Assembly (NCBI RefSeq): GCF_003334785.1
Contig: NZ_QOWV01000006.1
From: Escherichia coli
GTDB taxonomy: Bacteria > Pseudomonadota > Gammaproteobacteria > Enterobacterales > Enterobacteriaceae
DNA: 64,000 nucleotides
Strand: one strand, 5' to 3'
Shown here: one piece after another, positions 63,600-64,000 of the stretch
Numbering within the stretch: position 1 is the first letter of the stretch
How the letters are laid out: each line of letters begins with the position of its first letter
Translations under genes and position numbers: made by a program
The notes under the pieces: model-generated
Databases searched by the model: none
Seen by the model: only the letters and a program-made list of their open reading frames with translations
What the model was told of the DNA's origin: nothing

Positions 63600-64000
63600 C
63601 TGAGGTAGCCTGAGTTTAACGGACACTCCTTCCTGAAATAGAATGGCATCAGAAGGAGCTAATAATGAGCAGAAAAACCCAACGTTACTCTAAAGAGTTC
63701 AAAGCCGAAGCTGTCAGAACGGTTCTTGAAAATCAACTTTCGATCAGTGAAGGCGCTTCCCGATTATCTCTTCCTGAAGGCACTTTAGGACAATGGGTTA
63801 CCGCCGCCAGAAAAGGGCTCGGTACTCCTGGTTCCCGCACGGTGGCTGAACTGGAATCTGAAATTCTGCAACTGCGTAAGGCGTTAAATGAAGCTCGCCT
63901 TGAGCGAGATATATTAAAAAAAGCAACAGCGTATTTTGCACAGGAGTCGCTGAAAAATACGCGTTAATCGAACAATGGCGACAACAATTTCCCATTGAAG
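63600..64000 (+). mobile_element. IS3-family insertion sequence (IS600-like), left end plus orfA; continues beyond window
   Basis: Terminal TG...GGACAC-type left end about 65 bp before orfA; orfA has HTH and leucine zipper; A-run slippery site at about 63915-63921 consistent with programmed -1 frameshift into orfB. Confidence 0.85.
63665..63967 (+). CDS. IS3-family transposase OrfA (IS600-like)
   Basis: 100-aa ORF MSRKTQRYSKEFKAEAVRTVLENQLSISEGASRLSLPEGTLGQWV...LERDILKKATAYFAQESL, characteristic IS3-family OrfA. Confidence 0.9.
   Translation: MSRKTQRYSKEFKAEAVRTVLENQLSISEGASRLSLPEGTLGQWVTAARKGLGTPGSRTVAELESEILQLRKALNEARLERDILKKATAYFAQESLKNTR

Follow-up and report, generated by a model that had tools for sequence, protein, structure and literature searches.

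A 543-codon open reading frame on the minus strand, at the right-hand edge of the 64,000-nucleotide stretch of Escherichia coli DNA analysed here (hereafter the window), runs from prophage sequence into the left end of a mobile element that continues past the last base. The locus raises the question of how the element came to lie there, and of what it did to the prophage gene that it interrupts. We conclude, at a probability of roughly 0.93, that the element is a 1264-bp IS600 (IS3 family, IS3 group), with its left end at 63601-64000, which transposed into the exonuclease remnant of a defective Qin-like lambdoid prophage beside rspB, in the terminus region of the E. coli chromosome. The following features of the element lie within the window:

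63598-63600, no strand: CGC, left copy of the 3-bp target-site duplication (from the flanks in relatives and the single CGC at the IS-free site)
63601-64000, plus: left 400 bp of IS600, the remainder of the 1264-bp element lying past the window end (from identity to annotated IS600 copies)
63601-63627, plus: left inverted repeat (IRL), 27 nt, beginning 5'-TG, sequence TGAGGTAGCCTGAGTTTAACGGACACT (a single occurrence in the window)
63655-63658, plus: GGAG ahead of orfA
63665-63967, plus: orfA, 100 amino acids, helix-turn-helix DNA-binding protein of IS600 (HTH_Tnp_1, transpos_IS3, list of open reading frames)
63916-63923, plus: A7G slippery run, just before the orfA stop (read from the sequence)

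The 400 bases at 63601-64000 matched 3492 records from complete E. coli genomes, of which 2276 reached at least 99% identity; the best matches listed were identical at 400 of 400 positions, and the feature underlying them is named 'IS3-like element IS600 family transposase'. IS600 was originally described from Shigella sonnei, and in ISfinder practice a DNA identity of at least 95% makes two elements the same IS. Judged against RefSeq-annotated copies, the identity is complete (400/400); between a relative's full copy and those on S. sonnei plasmids it is 99.8%. The initial annotation, which had placed an 'IS600-like' element of the IS3 family from 63600, was thus right about the family and one base off the true start at 63601, and the element is IS600 itself. 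OrfA matched the Pfam model HTH_Tnp_1 (2e-20) and positions 1-86 of the 369 in the NCBIfam profile transpos_IS3. The IRL sequence TGAGGTAGCCTGAGTTTAACGGACACT has no second occurrence in the window and did not turn up in any of 100 shuffles, and a search across the window for further IRL or right inverted repeat (IRR) ends, allowing up to 3 mismatches, returned this one IRL alone; there is therefore no second IS600 copy or composite structure in the window. A promoter and terminator scan of 63300-64000 returned a promoter-like TTAACG-17-TAGAAT on the plus strand (63616-63644), starting within the IRL, at chance level; promoters of IS3-family elements are usually located at this place. Across the window nothing reached the gathering thresholds of Rfam, and hence no curated frameshift element was found.

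Since the window covers bases 1-400 of 1264, the right end, orfB and the target duplication were read in three relatives with the same junction, ML35, H3 and AST198. In ML35 a 1221-bp IS30, together with a 2-bp AC duplication, sits within the element, and removal of the IS30 leaves exactly 1264 bp, of which the first 400 bp are the window sequence. H3 carries IS600 without IS30 and with a 3-bp deletion at the IS30 site. AST198, the closest IS30-free relative (2 mismatches in 6550 overlapping positions), carries an uninterrupted 1264-bp copy that RefSeq annotates with 'programmed frameshift'; this copy has no differences from the window across 63601-64000 and is, over its full length, 99.8% identical to IS600 on S. 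sonnei 53G plasmids. In all three genomes the left flank ends in ...GAGATACGC before IS600, CGCTTCCAG comes after the element, and the right flank reads CGCTTCCAGTC, so that CGC stands as a 3-bp direct repeat on both sides. The IRR of the relatives is AGTGTCCGCTATTGCCAGTACACCTCA, which pairs with the IRL at 19 of 27 positions and gives the termini TG...CA. In the relatives' copy, orfB is in the -1 frame relative to orfA, and this frame stays open downstream of the slippery site; the orfB product matched rve (the DDE, retroviral-integrase-like catalytic core; 5.8e-26), as well as rve_2, rve_3 and HTH_21. The same-junction genomes thus contain everything that had been predicted for the missing part, namely a length of about 1.2-1.3 kb (1264 bp), a right inverted repeat, a downstream orfB and a 3-bp target duplication. 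The element as a whole has TG...CA inverted repeats, a -1 orfB with an AnG motif, a helix-turn-helix OrfA, an rve-containing OrfB and a 3-bp duplication, as IS3-family elements do. By the example of these relatives, the source genome of the window is expected to carry the right two thirds of IS600, the IRR and the second CGC, with no rearrangement downstream.

The target duplication of IS600 is 3 nt (PMC9397093). For the empty site we used a query that joined the 400 bp up to and including the CGC before the IS to the 399 bp after the second CGC. Many E. coli genomes gave 800/800 single-piece matches to it, with a single CGC; the IS-bearing allele therefore arose by ordinary transposition with a 3-bp duplication, and not by IS-mediated deletion. 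For the source genome itself, a simple insertion would predict 864 bp past position 64000, ending in ...AGTGTCCGCTATTGCCAGTACACCTCA and followed by CGCTTCCAGTCTTCGCGG.

Since the right end falls outside the window, the visible IS600 end might instead be one side of an IS-mediated rearrangement (a deletion, an inversion or recombination between copies), with something other than the exonuclease on the far side. The relatives hold 3-8 IS600-matching places per genome, which would be able to recombine; at least one relative, NCTC9100 (NZ_LR134239.1), matches only to window position 63927, the IS30 site, suggesting rearrangement there; and the right junction was found in 41 genomes against 37 for the left, so that the junctions can be uncoupled. 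However, both junctions and the CGC duplication are kept in all three relatives examined at base level, and the window is nearly identical to these three up to its last base, which makes a rearrangement an unlikely account of the window. Even less can be said for the idea that the OrfA-like gene encodes a helix-turn-helix regulator unrelated to any IS and resembles an IS superficially. It draws on nothing beyond orfA being visible in the window, and against it stand thousands of annotated IS600 copies to which the 400 bp, with their non-coding terminal repeat, are 100% identical, and the orfB (rve) that continues the sequence in every relative. We regard this reading as refuted by the nucleotide identity to IS600 and the downstream orfB rve, and its remaining probability as negligible.

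Simple transposition of IS600 thus being the preferred account, its effect on the prophage depends on the state of the sequence to the left of the element, where the following features lie:

60356-61651, minus: tyrosine integrase of the prophage adjoining rspB, at the end of the Qin-like prophage (NCBIfam tyrosine recombinase models; 'site-specific integrase' in relatives)
61671-61922, minus: prophage excisionase ('excisionase family protein' at the matching position in ML35, BUCT2930 and AST198)
61995-63600, minus: prophage 3'-5' exonuclease pseudogene fragment, codons 290-823 and stop, the C-terminal two thirds (PhiR42_1 alignment, Pfam)
63601-63626, minus: IS-derived 26 nt with a GTG start, 8 2/3 codons, MSVKLRLP- (list of open reading frames and sequence)

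The intact exonuclease gene of the inducible phage PhiR42_1 has 823 codons, and the window fragment is identical to residues 289-823 of its product at 534 of 535 positions. Residues 10-543 of the 543-codon frame (61995-63626, minus strand) are residues 290-823 of the PhiR42_1 exonuclease, identically, and the ninth codon spans the junction. IS600 thus splits codon 289 of 823, in the middle third of the gene. The distance of about 30 bp that the initial annotation had given between the IS and the start of the exonuclease holds for the artefactual reading frame, not for the gene. The C-terminal domain, an Rv2179c-like 3'-5' exoribonuclease domain (PF16473, 2.4e-67, residues 353-524), is intact. 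Rv2179c-like/DEDDh exonucleases of lambdoid prophages are often labelled 'exodeoxyribonuclease VIII'; the NCBIfam model of that name, PRK09709, scored 258 bits against a cut-off of 1269. What lies left of the IS is residues 290-823 of 823 alone, and not a full-length lambdoid prophage exonuclease; together with the low score, this makes it a fragment of a pseudogene rather than a RecE equivalog. RefSeq flags the exonuclease of the relatives as 'incomplete; missing N-terminus'.

The GTG that opens the 543-codon frame lies at 63626, inside the IRL, with AGGA four bases upstream. As had been proposed from the sequence, the frame is a chimera of phage and IS, its start codon being 26 nt inside the element and its residues 10-543 phage-derived; it is a mechanical open reading frame and not a gene. 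By chance this GTG is in frame with the exonuclease remnant, and the reading frame that it opens out of the IS is the spurious 543-codon chimera. No outward promoter-like site on the minus strand, toward the exonuclease fragment, was found in the scan of 63300-64000. We consider it very unlikely that the chimeric frame is expressed as an N-terminally truncated but active exonuclease, that is, a neo-gene created by the IS, and give the same small weight to the separate suggestion that the window is the rare transposition-competent ancestor of a locus disabled by IS30.

The N-terminal part of the exonuclease gene is affected by a separate event. In the IS-free alleles matching at 800/800, the annotated exonuclease is 'missing N-terminus' and fused to a DUF977 remnant. 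Compared with PhiR42_1 DNA, the IS-free query is 100% identical over 779 bases, and the identity stops at query base 779, at about codon 163. To the right of the IS, 389 bp separate it from the deletion junction (positions 5768-5800 of locus L002; 7784-7803 of the AST198 locus, L006), which no IS flanks. Absent relative to PhiR42_1 are exonuclease codons 1 to about 162, the dicB-side ydfD/ydfC/ydfB-like genes, cI, cro, cII and O. We rejected the idea that the IS mediated an adjacent deletion and thereby removed the N-terminus, the junction being 389 bp past the IS and present in IS-free genomes. Since the IS-free genomes already lack codons 1 to about 162, the exonuclease was dead before IS600 arrived.

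The interruption of the reading frame at codon 289 could be taken to mean that IS600 inactivated a functional exonuclease gene, and IS600 insertions do inactivate genes, for example lacZ in STEC O121:H19 (PMC9397093). However, IS-free genomes with an identical flank are truncated at about codon 163, carry the DUF977 fusion and have no dicB/cI/cro/cII/O block, and IS600 at this CGC with codons 1-162 and the immunity region intact was not seen. Moreover, the IS-free query was covered to at least 80% in 3543 genomes (prophages with an intact gene included) against 37 with the IS, which makes the deletion the older event unless precise excision of the IS happened many times. Inactivation by IS600 is accordingly highly improbable, and the insertion into an existing remnant was most likely neutral, because by then codons 1 to about 162 of the gene were gone, as was the entire immunity/replication block.

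The integrase, excisionase and exonuclease that follow rspB, together with flxA, ydfV, relBE, hokD and ydfU deeper in the prophage in relatives, identify a Qin-like lambdoid prophage, and the IS, as initially proposed, lies in its early region, in the leftward early (int-xis-exo) arm. The 'ongoing IS-mediated decay' suggested for this prophage stands as accretion of IS elements only (IS600, then IS30 in relatives): the insertion is clean, its duplication is intact and nothing next to it is deleted. This cryptic prophage further contains a shortened ISNCY-family transposase gene (ML35 locus L001, 15129-16172, with equivalents in L002, H3 and AST198) and several small genes with frameshifts or stops (DUF7167 and a hypothetical protein). 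The ISNCY fragment and the broken small genes point to extensive decay of the prophage unrelated to IS600.

A query spanning the left junction by 150 bp on either side was matched in 37 of 5426 complete E. coli genomes, and the right junction, as single-piece matches, in about 41. The IS30 already described in ML35 (1221 bp with the 2-bp AC duplication; locus L001, 10329-11551) is nested at window position 63926-63927, 4 bp downstream of the A7G run, and splits the transposase gene. It is present in all single-piece junction carriers seen except AST198 and H3; IS30-free carriers were sought with a 700-bp query, of which an IS30-bearing copy would fall below 80% coverage. At the IS30 site the window has the canonical sequence and belongs to the rarer, IS30-free state; its IS600 may, judging by the uninterrupted sequence, still be active. 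The three best-matching records for 39001-64000, VE-F10, PEC399 and one other, are free of mismatches but carry the IS30, and none of the 5426 complete genomes gave a perfect single-piece match to this segment. The likely order of events is the deletion in the prophage, then the insertion of IS600, then the nesting of IS30 in most of that lineage.

Two further observations concern the IS30 site. In H3, positions 324-326 of IS600 (window 63924-63926), CAA, are deleted exactly at the point where IS30 is inserted in the relatives, which could be the footprint of an imprecise IS30 excision or an assembly error beside a homopolymer. NCTC9100 has no rejoined IS600 piece after 63927, which suggests that the locus underwent another rearrangement, associated with IS30 or IS600.

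The chromosomal part of the window carries, in order, dtpA, nth, rsx, mal, uid, fumBC, tus, pnt, ynfEFGH and rspAB, the arrangement of the E. coli terminus region. A Ter-type site, GTATGTTGTAACTAA, with a TerB-like core (28818-28832, minus strand) lies directly upstream of tus (27875-28804), which likewise puts the window in the region where replication terminates. The clcB gene (voltage-gated ClC chloride channel; 46492-47784, minus strand) has an in-frame stop at codon 138 (about 47371-47373) and is thus a pseudogene; RefSeq calls an 'internal stop' in clcB of the near-identical VE-F10 too.

The initial annotation had taken IS600 as a hint of a Shigella-like source. Its premise, that IS600 is abundant in Shigella and some E. 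coli, agrees with the literature, in which IS600 is described as expanded in Shigella, EIEC and a number of STEC serotypes (PMC7373316, PMC9397093). The conclusion fails: over its first 49,271 bp the window is collinear with the commensal-type E. coli VE-F10 with 4 differences, and no IS other than this one is present in the 64 kb. IS600 sequence was found in 3234 of the 5426 complete E. coli genomes (median 2 places, maximum 43); therefore one IS600 copy is no pointer to Shigella. We rejected a Shigella origin as unsupported, given one IS in 64 kb and near-identity to ordinary E. coli chromosomes, in a comparison that drew on complete genomes for E. coli and on plasmids for Shigella.

How the element would have moved can be outlined from its family. 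The AnG motif is the rule in the IS3 family (PMC5771124), and transposition through a figure-of-eight and a circle (copy-out-paste-in) is established for IS911, IS2 and IS3 (PMC3219604, PMC5771124). By analogy with these three elements, the OrfAB transposase of IS600 would be made by programmed -1 frameshifting at the A7G run, which joins orfA to orfB. OrfAB would, as elsewhere in the family, bind the inverted repeats through its helix-turn-helix and cleave one end, giving a figure-of-eight and then a circle with abutted ends; integration of the circle at a new site by staggered cuts would produce the 3-bp duplication. OrfA alone would act as a regulator that modulates OrfAB activity. Both the frameshifting at A7G and the circle intermediate are thus predictions for IS600 carried over from its relatives.

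Taken together, the locus holds a conventional IS600 insertion, which is already known biology; it adds nothing new on IS biology or prophage decay, and its value is mainly for annotation. The 543-codon open reading frame should not be called a gene, being the 3' two thirds of an exonuclease pseudogene plus 26 nt of IS600. The locus is also a three-state lineage marker (empty, IS600 and IS600::IS30), which could serve for strain typing; the insertion is found in about 0.7% of complete E. coli genomes.

Compared with known systems, the element has the same length (1264 bp), ends, orfA and orfB frames, A7G run and 3-bp duplication as IS600, as read from the relatives' copies at this site, and it differs from IS600 in nothing; the lineage-specific feature is the insertion site alone, occupied in about 0.7% of complete E. 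coli genomes. A closely related allele is IS600::IS30 (ML35, NCTC9087, VE-F10 and about 30 other complete genomes), with the same IS600 at the same CGC and with flanks that are identical or nearly so; its transposase gene is split by IS30, whereas the window copy is uninterrupted. The prophage shares its neighbourhood with Qin of K-12 and with mEp460/PhiR42_1-like phages, having rspB on one side and flxA, ydfV, relBE, hokD and ydfU inward; K-12 Qin presumably differs in layout, with a truncated intQ and an IS2 remnant. Its int-xis-exo arm matches that of PhiR42_1, with an exonuclease remnant identical at 534 of 535 residues. In contrast to the PhiR42_1-like phages, the window-type prophage is defective, with the exonuclease N-terminus and the dicB/cI/cro/cII/O block deleted and with pseudogenes and an ISNCY fragment downstream.
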